Virus record (IMG/VR): IMGVR_UViG_2563366982_000004
Length of the DNA stretch: 13,990 nucleotides
Source of the DNA: a virus
Taxonomy: Duplodnaviria; Heunggongvirae; Uroviricota; Caudoviricetes
Reading direction: 5' to 3' (one strand)
Of this stretch, positions 1 to 11,143 are shown piece by piece. Below the pieces are notes generated by a model. That model did no database searches. It was not told the DNA's origin and saw only the letters and a list, made by a program, of their open reading frames with translations. Each line of letters begins with the position of its first letter. Positions within the stretch are counted from its first letter, which is position 1. The position numbers and the translations under genes are program-made.

Positions 1-858
1 ATGTTGAAACTTAAACAACCTGCTTACACATATGCCGATATGCTGACTAGTTGCCGCGAAGGCATAACCGGTAATCCGGGCTTGTTGCTGAAAGTAAATG
101 AAGCAATAACTGATTTGCAAACACTGGCAGCTTCATATAGCGCATCGGCATCAACTGGTGAGCTTTATACAATACAACCATTGAAAAACAAAGATAAGGA
201 AGACCCTATTGTTGTCGGTCGGTTAAAGAAATCTGACTTTGTTAAGCTTTATGGCAATTATGTTGTTGGGAAGAAAAAGCCTGCTCGAGCTATTTATGAT
301 TCCCTGATTACTGCTGCTAATGAAAAATGTCCATATTGTGGTGGAATTGGGCGCCCTCGAAATTTAGATCATTATTTGCCTAAAGCTTACTATCCTCAGT
401 TTTCTATATTGCCAGTTAATCTGGTGCCTGCTTGTCGAGACTGTAATATGGATGGCAAAGGGGAAGTTTTTGCAAGAAATGAAGCAGAACAGATCATACA
501 TCCCTATTTAGACGATAGCCGTTATTATGATGAACAGTGGATATCGGCTAGATACTTGGCTGGCAAAAATGATGAGCCAGGAGTTATTGAGTATTTTGTT
601 TCTCCACCGGCTGATTGGGATGAAGCACACAAACAAAGAGTGGAAAAACATTTTAACGATTTTGATTTGTCTTTAAGATATTCGAAAGAGGCTAGTGCGA
701 GATTAGTTGTACTTTTAGCTCTATATAACTCAGTGCTACCACTCTCCAGAGATAAAAATGCTGCTAAACACCTTATATTTCAAACAATAATTAATAAATC
801 GCCTTTTGTGAATCATTGGGAACGGGTTATGTGTTTGGCTCTTATGTCAGACTTGTAG
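1..858 (+). CDS. HNH-motif nuclease-family protein, function unknown (may be 5'-partial, since the ORF starts at window base 1)
   Basis: Translation carries CPYCGG...NLDHYLP...VNLVPACRDCN, i.e. CxxC / DH / N / CxxC spacing typical of HNH (beta-beta-alpha-Me) nucleases. Flanked by ~110 aa N-terminal and ~130 aa C-terminal regions I do not recognise. Not McrA and not Lit (no HExxH). Coding region looks A+T-richer than the phage core by eye. Confidence 0.55.
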   Translation: MLKLKQPAYTYADMLTSCREGITGNPGLLLKVNEAITDLQTLAASYSASASTGELYTIQPLKNKDKEDPIVVGRLKKSDFVKLYGNYVVGKKKPARAIYDSLITAANEKCPYCGGIGRPRNLDHYLPKAYYPQFSILPVNLVPACRDCNMDGKGEVFARNEAEQIIHPYLDDSRYYDEQWISARYLAGKNDEPGVIEYFVSPPADWDEAHKQRVEKHFNDFDLSLRYSKEASARLVVLLALYNSVLPLSRDKNAAKHLIFQTIINKSPFVNHWERVMCLALMSDL

Positions 859-912
859 TAATGCTTGAAGTTTTTATTTCTGTTCTAATTTCGTAGTTCC
901 ATTTTATTAAAT

Positions 913-947
913 AGATACCAAGCTCTATGCATAAGAGCTTGGTATCT
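913..947. terminator. Perfect 14-bp inverted repeat (AGATACCAAGCTCT / AGAGCTTGGTATCT) with 7-nt loop, between the convergent HNH gene and int; possible bidirectional terminator
   Basis: Palindrome read directly from the sequence. Flanks are A/T-rich on both sides but there is no clean U-tract, so terminator function is tentative. Confidence 0.35.
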
Positions 948-1126
948 ATTGAAATTAAGCTCAATAACTGATCTGCTCTCCATTGATTAACACGTCACAA
1001 TATTAGTAATGTAACTATTAGGTTTCGAGATTAACTGCGAACTTCTGCTTTTTGCTCAAAGTGGACTGTTTGGTTCTTTTTCAAGTGTAGTTCGAAATTC
1101 AAGGTGGCGTTAAGGCACTTAATGCT

Positions 1127-2253
1127 TTACAACGCTACTTTACTCCATCCTTTACCTCGATCATCATGATAACGATCGGTTTGCTGTTGCGTTTTATGAC
1201 CAAGTAGTTTTTGTGTATTTAAACCCTGTTCTTTATACAAACGTTCTGATAAAGACCTTTGTTCATGAAATGTTGCGGGAGAACCTTCACCCCAGTTAAT
1301 TCCTGCTAAATCCCTCGCTTTACTGAAATTCATCGTCAATGTATTGGCTTTAACCTGCGCGCCGCGTTCAGCCTGTGAGGTAGTACGAAAAAAATGTACA
1401 AGGTATGGGCTGACAGCATAGTCACGGCAGCGGGCTACTACATCGCGCAAACTCCATTTAATCGCATTGAGACGCAGGGAAAGCGGGATGGCGATTTTGC
1501 TCCCGGTTTTTTCCTGGATGACATGGAGATGATCATCCCAAATATCGCTAAATTTCATACGCGAGATATCACCTAACCTCTGGCCGGTAACCAGTGCTAA
1601 CAGCATGGCATTCCCCATATAACGATGACTGGCATCAGCGATATCAAAGATTTTTTGCCACTCTTCAAGACTTAACCGTTGTCGGGTAATTTTTCTTCTG
1701 GGCTGTTTGGTGGCTAATGCCGGGTTATAGCCAGGGGGACTTCTCCGTAGTGTTGCGCCTCTTTGAAAACATCAATCAGTACGGAACGAACTACTTGCGC
1801 CATTCTCGGCTGTCCGGCGGCGATATACTCGTCAAGCAACTGGGCTATATCCCTGACATCAACGGCTGAAATTAACTTCAGTCCTGCTCGTTCCCTGAGC
1901 AAGGATACTGGTTTGGCTTTCTGTTTATAGGTGTTGAGCTTTATATCGCCACTTTTCAGTCTGTCTTCCTGGATTGCTTGATAGCGATCTAACCAGGTTG
2001 ACGTTGTGATTGCTTTTCCTTTGCTGGTTGCGATCCTGTCACTGATAGCTAGAATCTGCCGGGTTCTTTGCTCAGCTAGGCGTGTATTGGCCTCAGTGGC
2101 AATAGCAATGGCTTCAGCTTCGTTTGTGCCCAAAGAATGAAACTTCCCGGTCACTGGATGCTTATATCGCCAATAAACTTTATTTACTTTTCTGCTATAG
2201 AGCGGATACAAGTTCGGGACTGAAACATTATTCTTACGTGGTCTGGCTGCCAT
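1127..2253 (-). pseudogene. int: Lambda-family tyrosine integrase, split by a frameshift into an N-terminal ORF (1714..2253) and a C-terminal ORF (1127..1618)
   Basis: N-terminal ORF (MAARPRKNN...GEVPLAITRH) and C-terminal ORF (...LLALVTGQRLGD...FHEQRSLSERLY...LLGHK...RYHDDRG) together match the lambda Int arm-binding and catalytic domains. The two ORFs are in different frames. Reading through the 1619..1713 gap in the C-terminal frame gives a continuous Int-like sequence (...GYNPALATKQPRRKITRQRLSLEEWQKIFDIADASHRYMGNAMLL). The shift maps to a G5 run at 1734..1738. Confidence 0.8.
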
Positions 2254-2384
2254 TACTTAAAATCCTTTGTAGAATAATAGAATCACTTTTCTTAATGACA
2301 GGAGTAACTAATTCTCCAACTAACTCTGCGTCCTCACGTACTCGCCATAGTCGACCTTGTTTCATTGCCGGTGTGTAGTGGCAC
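2234..2384 (-). pseudogene. xis: Excisionase (xis) remnant, 3' end overlapping the int start; 5' end abuts the IS left terminus
   Basis: Minus-strand frame reads ...MKQGRLWRVREDAELVGELVTPVIKKSDSIILQRILSNGSQTT*, resembling the C-terminal two thirds of lambda Xis (W-VRE ... LLKRIRNG). Stop overlaps the int ATG as in lambda. Only ~50 codons remain before the IS end, so an N-terminal loss is likely but not proven. Confidence 0.45.
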
Positions 2385-2456
2385 TGAAGTGGTTTACTGA
2401 ATTTGGCCACCTGAACAGAGGTGATATGCTCACCTCAGAACAACACAGGTGCCATA

Positions 2457-3604
<1,148 letters not shown>

Positions 3605-3636
3605 CTCGGTGGCCAGTTTTTGTTGACCACTTCAAT

Positions 3637-5008: not shown

Positions 5009-5093
5009 AGTCAGAGATAACAATCAACTAATACTGTTTTGTTGATTTTTGCTTGTAATTGGCGTTCTGGTCTGATTTTTGTGGAGTAAGTTG

Positions 5094-5477
5094 ATGCGTG
5101 ATATTCAGATGGTTCTTGAGCGTTGGGGAGCGTGGGCGGCTAATAATCATGAAGATGTGACCTGGTCGTCCGTTGCCGCCGGTTTTAAGGGATTAATTCC
5201 TTCAAAAGTAAAATCTCGCCCGCAATGTTGTGACGATGACGCGATGATCATTTGCGGGTGCATGGCCCGTCTGAAAAAGAACAACAGCGATTTACACGAT
5301 TTATTAGTAGATTATTATGTATGTGGTATGACATTCATGTCACTGGCAAGTAAGCATTGCTGCTCGGATGGTTATATCGGGAAAAGGTTACAGAAGGCTG
5401 AGGGCATAATTGAAGGGATGTTAATGGCATTAGATATCCGGTTAGATATGGATATCGTTGCTAATAATTCTAATTGA
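5094..5477 (+). CDS. quuD: Late-gene antiterminator Q (QuuD-like)
   Basis: [26 protein letters not shown]...[16 protein letters not shown]... matches the DLP12 QuuD-type Q protein. GGAGTAAG lies upstream of the ATG at 5094; the track start at 5079 is probably an upstream in-frame ATG. Confidence 0.8.
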
Positions 5478-5665: not shown

Positions 5666-6748
5666 TTAGAACTGATAAACCAGACCTACAGCGACGATGT
5701 CGTCGGTATCAATACCAGCTGTTTTGGTAAACTTACTATCGTCAATTAAGTTGATTTTGTAATCAACAAAAGTGGACATGTTTTTATTAAAGTAGTAAGT
5801 AGCACCGACATCGACATACTTGACTAAGTCTCGGTCACCATGAACACCAAGGTCTTTACCTTTTGACTGAAGGTAAGCAACAGATGGTCGCAGACCGAAG
5901 TCAAACTGATATTGTGCTACTGCTTCAAAGTTTTGTGCTTTGTTTGCAATATGGTTATTACCAAAAACGGTCATATTCTGAGTTTCAGAATATGTGGTAG
6001 CCAGATAGATATTGTTCGCATCATATTTCAGGCCTGCAGCCCATACTTCCGCATTTTTGCCGGAGGCATTGAATTTGCTCTTACCATAGGCGACCTGACC
6101 GTCAGTGCGATCTGATTTAGCATAGGTTGCACCCACGCCGAATCCTTCATACTCATAAGTAGTGGAGAAACCGAAACCATCACCATTGGCTTCAGTTACG
6201 TCAGTGCGGTCATTTTTACCCTGATACTGAGCAGCAAAGTTCAGGCCATCGACCAGACCAAAGAAGTCGTTGTTACGATAAGTTGCAACACCAGTAGTGC
6301 GACCAGTCATGAACACATCTGTTTGGGTCCAGGTATCACCACCGAATTCTGGCAGGACGTCAGTCCACGCACCGATGTCGTATGCTACACCGTAGTTACG
6401 GCCGTAATCGATTGAGCCGTAATCACCAAATTTCAGGCCTGCAAATGCAAGACGGGTTTTGTCTTTGGAAGAACCTTGAGATTCAGCACGGTTGCCTTTG
6501 AATTCATATTCCCACTGACCGAAACCAGTCAGTTGATCGTTGATTTGGGTTTCACCTTTGAAGCCAAGACGGGCATAAGTAGTATCACCATCATCTGCAT
6601 CATTAGAGGAGAAGTAGTGCTTGGCATTAACTTTCCCGTATAGATCCAGCTTGTTACTGTCTTTATTATAAATTTCAGCTGCCTGAGCAGACATCGCCAT
6701 CAGTACTGATGCAGCTACAGCAGAAATTGCCACTGTTAATTTTTTCAT
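5666..6748 (-). CDS. nmpC: OmpC/OmpF-family outer-membrane porin, prophage-encoded (NmpC / Lc type), apparently intact
   Basis: 360 aa with signal peptide [23 protein letters not shown], a full-length porin body and the C-terminal ...VGLVYQF beta-barrel signature. Matches NmpC/Lc. RBS AAGGG lies upstream on the minus strand. Confidence 0.9.
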
Positions 6749-6990
6749 TGTACGCCCTTTTTTTTGAACTATTATTAAAAAATGATGTCACTGCGCGATA
6801 AATATTCATCTAATCAATGCGATTATTTCAAGATGTAAGTTTTAGTTTCTCATTTAATTTGTGAAGTAGATCTCTATTTTTATCTGAACCTTTTCTATCT
6901 AATCCTATTCATGGCTCTTGTTTGAACGAAAATAAATCTATTAGCTAATTTATATTAATGGCACTTATTTATAAGCGCTCTATAATTCTT
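6749..6990 (-). promoter_or_regulatory. A+T-rich upstream region of the porin gene (probable promoter/regulatory region)
   Basis: Long noncoding A+T-rich tract immediately 5' of nmpC on its coding strand. No individual -35/-10 or regulator site can be assigned by eye. Confidence 0.35.
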
Positions 6991-7175
6991 TAACTTAATT
7001 TAAACAAACTAAAAATAACATCGGAAATTATTCATTGGTTATTTGTTGAAGTTTTCTTATGTATTTGTGGTGGTGTTTTGAACACTCGGTGGCATTCTCA
7101 CAAATATCATTTAGTAGTTTACGTACGTAAAAAATTGGTTATGCTGTTAAGAGTGGTTACTTCGTCACACAGCTT

Positions 7176-7208
7176 AAACCCGCCGTCGAGCGGGTTTTTC
7201 CATTTTTT
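7176..7208 (+). terminator. Rho-independent terminator on the plus strand with no ORF upstream (lambda tR'-like: AAACCCGC-cgtcga-GCGGGTTT + TTCCATTTTTTG)
   Basis: 8-bp stem plus T-tract, resembling my recollection of the lambda tR' hairpin (CCGCC...GAGCGGGCTTTTTT). Lies ~130 bp upstream of the holin gene. Confidence 0.55.
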
Positions 7209-7337: not shown

Positions 7338-7553
7338 ATGAAATCCATGGATAAGTTAACAACGGGTGTCGCCTATGGCACCTCAGCAGGTAGTGCCGGG
7401 TACTGGTTTTTACAGTTGCTCGATAAAGTCACGCCCTCACAGTGGGCGGCAATAGGTGTGCTGGGTAGTCTGGTATTTGGCTTGCTGACGTATCTGACAA
7501 ACCTTTATTTCAAGATTAAAGAAGATAAGCGTAAGGCTGCGAGAGGTGAATAA
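7338..7553 (+). CDS. essD: Class II holin / pinholin (S21-like, EssD-like)
   Basis: 71 aa, [71 protein letters not shown], with two transmembrane segments as in phage 21 S. Stop overlaps the next ATG (TAATG). Confidence 0.85.
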
Positions 7554-7750
7554 TGTCGCCATCATTACGCAAGGCTATTGCTGCTGCTATTGGTGGTGGG
7601 GCTGTTGCCATAGCGTCTGTGCTCATCACTGGTCCGAGTGGTGACGATGGCCTGGAAGGTGTCAGCTACATACCATACAAAGATATTGTTGGTGTATGGA
7701 CTGTATGTCACGGGCATACAGGAAAAGACATCATGCTCGGTAAAACGTAT
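7553..7750 (+). pseudogene. rrrD: 5' fragment of the SAR-endolysin gene (rrrD / R21-like) retained as the head of the J fusion
   Basis: Only ~66 codons of an expected ~165-codon lysozyme are present; the rest of the lysozyme fold is missing. Confidence 0.7.
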
Positions 7751-10700
7751 AAAGGCAGCAGTAAGGGGCATACCCCGCGCGAAGCGAAGGACAACCTGAA
7801 ATCCACGCAGTTACTGAGTGTGATCGATGCCATCAGCGAAGGGCCGATTGAAGGTCCGGTGGATGGGTTAAAAAGCGTGCTACTGAACAGTACGCCGGTG
7901 CTGGACACTGAGGGGAATACCAATATCTCCGGTGTCACGGTGGTGTTCCGGGCAGGTGAGCAGGAGCAGACTCCGCCGGAGGGGTTTGAATCCTCCGGCT
8001 CCGAGACGGTGCTGGGTACGGAAGTGAAATACGACACGCCGATCACCCGCACCATCACGTCGGCAAACATCGACCGTCTGCGTTTTACCTTCGGTGTGCA
8101 GGCACTGGTGGAAACCACTTCAAAGGGTGACCGGAATCCGTCGGAAGTTCGCCTGCTGGTTCAGATACAGCGTAACGGTGGCTGGGTGACGGAAAAAGAC
8201 ATCACCATTAAGGGCAAAACCACCTCGCAGTATCTGGCCTCGGTGGTGGTGGATAACCTGCCTCCGCGCCCGTTCAATATCCGGATGCGCAGGATGACAC
8301 CGGACAGCACCACAGACCAGCTGCAGAACAAAACGCTCTGGTCGTCATACACCGAAATCATCGATATGAAACAGTGCTACCCGAACACGGCACTGGTCGG
8401 TGTGCAGGTGGACTCGGAGCAGTTCGGCAGTCAGCAGGTGAGTCGTAATTATCATCTGCGCGGGCGCATTCTGCAGGTGCCGTCGAACTATAACCCGCAG
8501 ACGCGACAATACAGCGGTATCTGGGACGGAACGTTAAAACCGGCATACAGCAACAACATGGCCTGGTGTCTGTGGGATATGCTGACCCATCCGCGCTACG
8601 GCATGGGGAAACGTCTTGGTGCGGCGGATGTGGACAAATGGGCGCTGTATGTCATCGGCCAGAATTGCGACCAGTCGGTGCCGGATGGTTTTGGTGGCAC
8701 GGAGCCGCGCATCACCTGTAATGCCTGGCTGACCACACAGCGTAAGGCGTGGGATGTTCTCAGTGATTTCTGCTCGGCGATGCGCTGTATGCCGGTATGG
8801 AACGGGCAGACGCTGACGTTCGTGCAGGACCGGCCGTCGGATAAGGTGTGGACCTATAACCGCAGTAATGTGGTGATGCCGGATGATGGCGCGCCGTTCC
8901 GCTACAGTTTCAGCGCCCTGAAGGACCGCCATAATGCCGTTGAGGTGAACTGGATTGACCCGGATAACGGCTGGGAGACGGCGACAGAGCTTGTGGAGGA
9001 CACGCAGGCCATTGCCCGTTACGGTCGTAACGTCACGAAGATGGATGCCTTTGGCTGTACCAGTCGGGGGCAGGCACACCGAGCCGGGCTGTGGCTGATT
9101 AAAACGGAACTGCTGGAAACGCAGACCGTGGATTTCAGCGTGGGCGCAGAAGGGCTTCGCCATGTGCCGGGCGATGTTATTGAAATCTGCGATGATGACT
9201 ATGCGGGTATCAGCATCGGCGGGCGCGTGCTGGCGGTGAACAGCCAGACCCGGACGCTGACGCTCGACCGTGAAATCACTCTGCCATCCTCCGGTACCAC
9301 GCTGATAAGCCTGGTTGACGGAAGCGGCAATCCGGTCAGCGTGGAGGTCCAGTCCGTCACCGACGGCGTGAAGGTAAAAGTGAGCCGGGTTCCTGACGGC
9401 GTTGCCGGATACAGCGTGTGGGGGCTGAAGTTGCCGACGTTGCGCCAGCGCCTGTTCCGCTGCGTGAGTATCCGTGAGAACGATGACGGCACGTATGCCA
9501 TCACTGCCGTGCAGCATGTACCGGAAAAAGAGGCCATCGTGGATAACGGGGCGCACTTTGACGGCGACCAGAGCGGCACGGTGAATGGTGTCACGCCGCC
9601 AGCGGTGCAGCACCTGACTGCCGAAGTCACCGCAGACAGCGGGGAATATCAGGTGCTGGCGCGCTGGGACACGCCGAAGGTGGTGAAGGGGGTGAGCTTT
9701 ATGCTTCGCCTGACCGTGGCAGCGGATGACGGCAGTGAGCGGCTGGTCAGCACGGCCCGGACGACGGAAACCACATACCGCTTCACGCAACTGGCGCTGG
9801 GGCGGTACACGCTGACAGTCCGGGCGGTAAATGCGTGGGGGCAGCAGGGCGATCCGGCGTCGGTATCGTTCCGGATTGCCGCACCGGCAGCACCGTCGAG
9901 GATTGATCTGACGCCGGGCTATTTTCAGATAACCGCCACGCCGCATCTTGCCGTTTATGACCCGACGGTACAGTTTGAATTCTGGTTCTCGGAAAAGCGG
10001 ATTACCGATATCAGGCAGGTTGAAACCACAGCCCGCTATCTTGGCACGGCGCTGTACTGGATAGCTGCCAGTATCAATATTAAGCCGGGCCATGATTATT
10101 ATTTTTATATCCGCAGTGTGAATACTGTTGGCAAATCGGCATTCGTGGAGGCTGTCGGTCAGGCGAGCGATGATGCTTCCGGCTATCTGGATTTTTTCAA
10201 AGGCCAGATAACTGAATCCCATCTCGGCAAGGAGCTGCTGGAAAAAGTCGAGCTGACGGAGGATAACGCCAGCAAACTGGAGGAGTTTTCGAAAGAGTGG
10301 AAAGACGCCAACGATAAATGGAATGCCATGTGGGGCGTCAAAATTGAGCAGACCGAAGACGGCAGGCATTATGTCGCGGGTATTGGCCTCAGCATGGAGG
10401 ATACGGAGGAAGGCAAACTGAGCCAGTTCCTGGTTGCCGCTAACCGTATCGCGTTTATTGACCCGGCAAACGGGAATGAAACGCCGATGTTTGTGGCGCA
10501 GGGCAACCAGATATTCATGAACGAAGTGTTCCTGAAGTATCTGACGGCTCCCACCATTACCAGCGGCGGCAATCCGCCGGTATTTTCCCTGACACCGGAC
10601 GGGCGGTTGACGGCGAAAAATGCCGATATCAGCGGTAACGTGAATGCGAACTCAGGGACGCTCAATAATGTCACGATTAACCAGAACTGTCGGATTCTGG

Positions 10701-11143
10701 GAAAACTGTCTGCCAACCAGATTGAAGGTGATATTGTCAAAACGGTGGGAAAAGCCTTTCCGAGAAATGGCAGTTATGCCAGCGGTACAATAACGGTCAC
10801 TGTGTACGATGACCAGGCTTTTGACCGTCAGATAGTAATCCCACCCGTTCTGTTTCGCGGTGGTAAGCATGAAAACTTCAACAGCAACAACCAACAGTCA
10901 TACTGGTATTCAACCTGTAAGCTGCAGGTACTGAAGAACGGACAGGAAATCTTTCAGCAACCCGCGACGGATGTCAGCAGGGTATTTTCATCCGTCATTG
11001 ATATGCCAGCGGGACACGGCCATGTCACCCTGACTTTCAATGTTTCTTCATATGGTGCAAATAACTGGACGCCAACGACCAGTATCAGCGACCTTCTTGT
11101 TGTCGTGATGAAGAAATCAACAGCCGGTATCAGTATCAGTTGA
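7553..11143 (+). CDS. In-frame chimera: SAR endolysin N-terminus (codons 1..66) fused to lambda J-like host-specificity / tail-tip protein (codons 67..1196)
   Basis: Residues 1..66 ([66 protein letters not shown]) match the signal-anchor-release domain and catalytic start of the phage 21 / RrrD lysozyme. From residue 67 ([32 protein letters not shown]...) it is lambda J from its third codon to the end. Junction is at about nt 7750/7751. GAGGTG RBS is intact upstream of the ATG. Confidence 0.8.

Follow-up and report, generated by a model that had tools for sequence, protein, structure and literature searches.

Organization of the locus

The window, by which we mean the whole 13,990-nucleotide stretch of DNA that was analyzed (IMG/VR record IMGVR_UViG_2563366982_000004), opens with an ATG-to-TAG reading frame that was recovered from the list of open reading frames and their translations and encodes a 285-amino acid HNH protein. 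It is followed by the remains of an integrase gene on the other strand and by an insertion sequence, and the general features of this region are shown in Table 1. Over its first 3634 bases the window shows 100% identity to Escherichia coli M1/5, in which the annotated gene order is icd, IS200C, a gene for a 505-aa 'AAA family ATPase', the HNH gene and a frameshifted intE. Positions in the M1/5 locus are given below as L001 coordinates.

Table 1. Features in the first 3634 bases of the window, with positions numbered from the first base.
Feature	Position	Strand	Basis
HNH nuclease gene, Ea31-like/PtuB-like, PDC-M01B (WP_001556896.1)	1-858	+	ORF, PADLOC, PHROG 10378
N-terminal extension, mostly helical, family-specific (aa 1-~95)	1-285	+	56-sequence alignment, AF2 secondary structure
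HNH beta-beta-alpha-metal core: zinc site C110/C113/C145/C148, catalytic D123-H124, N140, N149	328-447	+	Alignment invariance
C-terminal part (aa ~174-285), two strands and four helices	520-855	+	
3' flank of the cargo cassette	859-1053	.	blastn break against K-12 e14
Hairpin with a perfect 17-bp stem, located between the HNH gene and the converging int	910-950	.	RNA fold
e14-type tyrosine integrase gene intE, frameshift-inactivated (ORFs 1127-1618 and 1714-2253)	1127-2253	-	Pfam, RefSeq
Excisionase gene remnant, cut by IS insertion	2234-2371	-	RefSeq annotation, identical M1/5 sequence
ISEc52 (IS3 family), frameshifted orfAB	2385-3634	+	Pfam HTH_Tnp_1 and rve, annotation

The integrase gene is 88% identical to intE of E. 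coli K-12; the Pfam domains Phage_integrase and Arm-DNA-bind_1 are found on its two halves, and RefSeq lists it as a 'frameshifted' pseudogene. A first-pass annotation of this DNA had described the HNH gene as convergent with the integrase, and the orientation stands, although the integrase is no longer an intact gene. What the same annotation took for a phage backbone is in fact a remnant that has suffered heavy deletion and is riddled with IS elements. Matches of the window to other E. coli genomes stop at position 2384. Past the junction at 3634/3635 the window lacks 3189 bp that are found in M1/5, where they encode an Ig-like-domain protein and an alpha/beta hydrolase, and enters a 5'-truncated ybcN/NinB-like gene; the junction looks like an IS-adjacent deletion. 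Further to the right, the holin gene essD (7338-7553) abuts the tail-tip gene gpJ (7553-11143). Terminase and head genes are missing, along with the remainder of the lysis cassette and the majority of the tail genes, so that the prophage is a chimeric remnant.

Several other features of the remnant can be recorded. A Q-type antiterminator gene (5079-5477) is followed by an oppositely oriented general porin gene (5666-6748; annotated ompC; Porin_1, E 2e-151), and an A+T-rich stretch of about 30% G+C lies at 6600-7200. Downstream of the 688-aa tail-fiber gene, the segment 13259-13990 contains ORFs of 92 and 146 aa that have no Pfam match, and the window ends exactly at the stop codon of the 146-aa ORF.

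A cargo cassette between attL and int

The HNH gene lies in an A+T-rich cassette of 2.8 kb (L001 7260-10053), the boundaries of which were established by blastn comparison of M1/5 with K-12. Homology covers icd and a further 165 bp on the attL side of e14 and breaks at L001 7260; it restarts at L001 10054, which is position 1054 of the window and 73 bp past the stop codon of int. The K-12 e14 interval that matches the cassette holds ymfD, ymfE and lit, with lit convergent on intE just as the HNH gene is, which bears out the att-proximal cargo position assigned to the gene at first pass. In K-12, mcrA is carried at the other end of e14. Likewise, the impression that the gene is A+T-rich held when base composition was computed: the HNH gene is 38.8% G+C (GC3 29%) and its partner ATPase gene 39.9%, compared with 45.6% for int, 50-54% for the adjoining host genes and 55.8% for gpJ.

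The cassette, which likely has its own promoter and terminator hairpin, constitutes swappable cargo between attL, which is in icd, and int of the decayed e14-like prophage. The 120-nt segment that contains the hairpin between the HNH and int genes has a folding energy of -30.9 kcal/mol (z -3.8, RNA fold). The hairpin is without a T-run and was missed by the terminator scan; it is probably the transcription stop for the module. A 78-bp stretch that encloses it (891-968) is missing from the allele carried by an integrative and conjugative element (ICE; L012). We asked whether this stretch is a dispersed repeat and ruled this out, as it is present only with the cassette among 81 E. coli genomes. 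At the other end of the cassette, a scan for consensus promoters and terminators yielded no sigma-70 site upstream of the ATPase gene, with totals no higher than in shuffled controls, and a pattern search gave a candidate promoter element, the extended -10 sequence TGATATAAT, 39 nt upstream of the ATPase ATG.

In M1/5, an IS200C that includes the STnc490 RNA (Rfam, 146 bits) is situated between icd and the cassette at L001 6392-7094, and at least one strain, 23AR0151, has an identical HNH gene without IS200C. We also note a 195-kb record labelled a 'plasmid' (L013, NZ_CP195449.1), which contains hflD-mnmA-nudJ-rluE-icd together with the cassette and a decayed int. As hflD, mnmA, nudJ, rluE and icd are chromosomal core genes, the record may be the product of misassembly or mislabelling, or else of the capture of a large piece of chromosome.

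The HNH protein

The HNH motif that had been noticed within a protein of about 285 residues is intact, and consists of C110-P-Y-C113-G-G (nt 328-345), D123-H124-Y-L-P (nt 367-381), N140, and C145-R-D-C148-N149 (nt 433-447). In an alignment of 56 sequences with 47-73% identity to the query, the eight residues C110, C113, D123, H124, N140, C145, C148 and N149 are invariant, and the motif is therefore a conserved active site and no chance pattern. More than 100 homologues are 284-292 aa long and can be aligned from residue 1. These lengths, together with the end-to-end profile matches in PADLOC and PHROG described below, show that the ORF is complete, and rule out that it is a piece of a larger gene. 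The regions on either side of the core had been regarded as unassignable. This holds for the N-terminal ~95 residues, which are family-specific, with an invariant C18 and a nearly invariant G21-I-T-G-N25 in the 56-sequence alignment, but not for the C-terminal helical part, which could be assigned to the PtuB fold (see below).

An ATPase encoded directly upstream

The first-pass annotation had placed any partner of the nuclease upstream of the window, and inspection of the upstream genes in M1/5 located it there. The ATPase gene lies outside the window at L001 7484-9001, on the same strand as the HNH gene, and base 1 of the window is common to the A of the HNH ATG and the last base of the ATPase TAA stop codon, giving a 1-nt stop/start overlap. 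Its 505-aa product is an ABC-type ATPase with Pfam domains AAA_21/AAA_15 above cut-off. The Walker A, signature, Walker B and H-loop residues are invariant; Walker A (G194-T201) is positioned behind a domain of about 170 aa, and Walker B is D371-E372.

We examined the pairing in 80 loci from species-representative genomes, 13 of which proved to be lambda DNA in unrelated assemblies and were set aside, leaving 67. An Ea59-like ATPase gene is directly upstream of the HNH gene in 66 of these 67 non-lambda loci. The ATPase gene ends one base inside the HNH gene in four phylogenetically distant loci, and the stop/start junctions are TAATG or TGATG in five lineages and ATGA in lambda. Conservation is always higher in the ATPase than in the HNH protein. 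A comparison of the prophage-borne and ICE-borne E. coli alleles shows purifying selection on both members of the pair, with dN/dS values of 0.16 (HNH gene) and 0.15 (ATPase gene).

The 13 assemblies that were set aside (L080-L092) are designated 'species-representative' and come from unrelated organisms, among them Streptomyces, Bradyrhizobium, Oceanobacillus, Neobacillus, Leeuwenhoekiella, Pseudomonas and Shewanella. Several of the phage lambda contigs that they hold are about 48 kb long, and several have very low coverage values in their names; control-DNA contamination is the most likely source.

Family assignment

Profile searches place both proteins in one catalogued family. The HNH protein matches the PADLOC model PDC-M01B (PDLC04256) with an E value of 1e-114, residues 1-284 of 285 aligning to profile positions 1-277 of 285, and PHROG 10378 with an E value of 2e-130, end to end. 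The ATPase matches PDC-M01A over its full length (E 1e-217) and, slightly better, the PADLOC model for PtuA of Septu (PDLC00282; E 2e-239, residues 1-504 on positions 1-519 of 520). The best 25 PADLOC matches of the HNH protein are all to PDC-M01B, and therefore any PtuB model ranks below an E value of 3e-14. Pfam and NCBIfam are unable to classify the HNH protein since all of its matches are sub-threshold: TIGR02646, the model for the PtuB family, does not recognize it (15.3 bits; cut-off 52.15), Pfam HNH maps onto residues 110-149 with 13.2 bits against a cut-off of 21.4, and IscB scores 12.3 bits.

The relationship of the HNH protein to PtuB becomes clear only through comparison of folds. 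Sequence matches to PtuB proteins in the PDB are marginal (E 0.003-0.38) and confined to the HNH core, with residues 97-150 aligned to PtuB residues 30-83, such that the core of PtuB begins about 67 residues earlier. The AlphaFold model of the HNH protein, by contrast, has clear structural matches to PtuB only, over the HNH core and over the helical domain that follows it at the C terminus, and the predicted fold, with the two in this order, is that of PtuB. For the modelled ATPase, the best structural matches are to PtuA. Among phage genomes searched by tblastn, the HNH protein is 39% identical to lambda Ea31 over 285 aa and the ATPase 53% identical to lambda Ea59.

These assignments bear on whether the HNH protein might act alone, as a terminase-associated nuclease, a homing endonuclease or an McrA-like type IV restriction enzyme. 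The HNH motif itself, weak PHROG matches to generic 'HNH endonuclease' families and the presence of mcrA at the far end of K-12 e14 are compatible with a solitary enzyme, but such a reading is contradicted by the obligatory partner and by the genomic context, in which there is no terminase, intron or intein. Furthermore, the best structural relatives of the modelled protein are PtuB proteins only, and it is a dedicated two-gene family that gives the best matches in PHROG and PADLOC, over the full length. We consider a stand-alone nuclease extremely improbable.

Three candidate classes were rejected on these grounds or others. A terminase-associated or homing HNH protein was ruled out, as the neighbors of the gene are the ATPase gene and int and no terminase is present in the window; the contexts of the HNH gene in other taxa are likewise non-structural, and its phage relative is Ea31, the product of a non-essential accessory gene, rather than a terminase-associated or replication protein. 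A retron effector was ruled out because no reverse transcriptase is annotated upstream, where Rfam shows only the IS200 STnc490 RNA. OLD, Gabija and PARIS were ruled out because the partner is an HNH and not a Toprim protein, the matches of the ATPase to AriA and OLD being weak and limited to the ATPase domain.

PDC-M01 is an unpublished candidate class, and PADLOC sometimes also calls its loci Septu (PMC11811056). The literature that we found treats it as a candidate system only, and reports on Ea31 and Ea59 use the genes as dispensable insertion sites. No paper was found on the RefSeq accessions of the pair, nor was any experiment on the Ea59/Ea31-type subfamily found in the searchable literature.

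Distribution, mobility and neighboring defense systems

Copies of the cassette with at least 93% identity are present in 90 of 5426 complete E. coli genomes (~1.5%), always with the ATPase gene. The cassette is also mobile: a version that is 93.7% identical and shares its ends (the right end being at L001 10066) is found in an ICE inserted at tRNA-Thr in strain PSS-13, where it adjoins the Lamassu genes LmuA/LmuB. Defense genes neighbor other relatives as well, with one in Vibrio located between PD-Lambda-2 genes and a P4-type integrase gene, and a deltaproteobacterial one beside RmrT/RmrA (RmrTA). The HNH family comprises 627 clusters (50% identity) at E≤1e-30, and 213 matches were confirmed in species-representative bacterial genomes, many of them without nearby phage genes. 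Integrase genes were detected near 7 of the 67 loci with a three-protein tblastn panel, a crude lower bound, and adjacency to int is thus recurrent but no rule of the family.

The module is carried on prophages, satellites and ICEs, and the lambda homologues are encoded by non-essential phage genes. The pair may therefore work for the mobile element rather than for its host, either while the element itself develops lytically or when it competes with other phages and plasmids, and would then be a leftover in a dead prophage. The closest characterized context, the lambda b region beside attP, agrees with this, and 'ben', the gene of the endonuclease described below, probably maps to that same region. 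A nuclease of this kind might degrade rival or host DNA, or process DNA ends. [quoted passage not shown] However, full-length relatives number only about 19 in 2.9 million IMG/VR viral contigs, several of these being lambda itself, against the 213 in bacterial genomes, and purifying selection has preserved both genes intact although the prophage has lost the ability to excise and to form particles. In addition, the neighbors of the module are host-protective defense systems, and ea31 and ea59 are dispensable for the growth of lambda. We therefore regard service to the element as unlikely.

Proposed function and mechanism

In our preferred interpretation, which we consider probable, the gene at the start of the window encodes the nuclease (B) subunit of an ATPase-nuclease module of the lambda Ea59/Ea31 type that acts as a Septu-like defense effector. 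The module is a distant and architecturally distinct branch of the Septu (PtuA/PtuB) family, catalogued as candidate PDC-M01. The suggestion made at first pass, of a candidate stand-alone or partnered anti-phage nuclease in a cargo slot, is thus supported, with the anti-phage activity itself being putative.

Work on Septu provides the basis for a proposed mechanism. [quoted passage not shown] Our proposal for the present module is modelled on the solved complexes of Septu and of the PtuAB pair of retron-Eco7.

According to this proposal, the ATPase and HNH protein would be made by coupled translation, and the ABC/SMC-type ATPase would oligomerize and hold the HNH subunit inactive in a complex formed through the C-terminal helices of both proteins, the C-terminal part of the HNH protein being the presumed ATPase-binding domain. 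Infection would free or activate the HNH site (D123-H124, N140, N149 and the Zn-Cys4), with the family-specific N-terminal domains as candidate sensors of the trigger. The active nuclease might then cut phage or host DNA, or tRNA, and the putative outcome is a halt in phage multiplication, probably at the cost of the infected cell.

A nuclease restrained by its partner could also be pictured as the toxin of an addiction (toxin-antitoxin-like) module, with the ATPase as the restraining component, and selection would then favor stabilization of the island or prophage in the genome rather than the stopping of phages. The ATPase does belong to a family, AAA_21, that is described as 'putative AbiEii toxin, type IV TA system', the two genes are tightly coupled and overlapping, and the module is on mobile elements. 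Nevertheless, the superfamily pairs that have been tested (Septu and retron-Eco7 PtuAB) are phage-triggered defense effectors, features of a labile antitoxin are not evident, and the cassette is retained in a remnant that no longer needs stabilization. Addiction thus appears quite improbable to us, and there is more overlap than conflict between it and abortive infection.

Within the preferred reading of a Septu-like effector, a more specific variant is possible although doubtful, namely that the Ea59/Ea31 clade is a distinct Septu-like subtype that senses another cue through residues 1-170 of the ATPase and 1-95 of the HNH protein, that the lambda pair in the 'dispensable' b region is a system for defense or for competition between phages, and that Ben represents the first biochemistry of the group.

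The HNH locus belongs to a catalogued Septu-related candidate family and is not a new kind of system. If it proves protective, the unpublished PDC-M01 would become a validated system backed by the clusters counted above, a function would be assigned to ea59 and ea31, which have long been orphans in lambda, and the e14-type attL-int slot would be an exchangeable site for defense cargo, occupied by lit in K-12 and by the cassette in ~1.5% of complete E. coli genomes. Of most interest are the connection with lambda ea59/ea31 and the way in which the cassette cleanly takes the place of lit. As its architecture departs from that of canonical Septu, the module would also be helpful in comparing how pairs of an ABC ATPase and an HNH protein detect infection and come to target DNA or tRNA.

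Comparison with known systems

Lit of the K-12 e14 prophage is the positional counterpart of the HNH gene, occupying the same attL-int slot on the same strand and converging on intE. Because Lit is a known abortive-infection gene, the slot is one used for exclusion functions. The likeness is of position, as Lit is an unrelated protein, annotated as a cell-death peptidase, with an unrelated mechanism.

The lambda Ea59/Ea31 pair shares with the present module its gene order, its overlapping stop and start codons, its protein sizes (525 and 296 aa, compared with 505 and 285 aa here) and its location adjoining the att/int region of a lambdoid element. The two differ in that the lambda pair is across attP from int and co-directional with it, whereas the pair described here is between attL and int and convergent with it, and in that the overlap in lambda is a 4-nt ATGA, compared with a 1-nt TAATG in the M1/5 locus. 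Both ea31 and ea59 are non-essential for lambda (PMC10695390). With PDC-M01 the agreement is complete, as its A and B models are both matched over their full length and we found no difference.

The closest solved structures and PDB sequences for both proteins are those of PtuAB from type I-A retrons (Ec78/Eco7 and Ec83). These retrons differ in having a reverse transcriptase gene and msr/msd, which are not present upstream of the pair here; that position is occupied by attL sequence and, in M1/5, additionally by IS200C.

Septu itself (for example that of E. coli ATCC 25922, PDB 8EE4/8EE7, and Ec-B88) is likewise a two-gene operon of an ATPase gene followed by an HNH gene, and the ATPase described here matches the curated PtuA model with intact Walker A, Walker B and signature motifs. 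In contrast, the HNH protein fails TIGR02646 and carries the ~67 extra N-terminal residues noted above, and the ATPase has its Walker A at about residue 200, after the extra domain of ~170 aa, whereas the Walker A and Walker B residues of tested Septu systems are K43 and D316; the insert between Walker A and Walker B is also much shorter here. Because the ATPase is organized differently from PtuA, the geometry of the oligomer and its regulation may differ from those of Septu. The C-terminal part of the HNH protein nevertheless corresponds, in both length and predicted fold, to the C-terminal domain with which PtuB docks on PtuA in the solved complexes.
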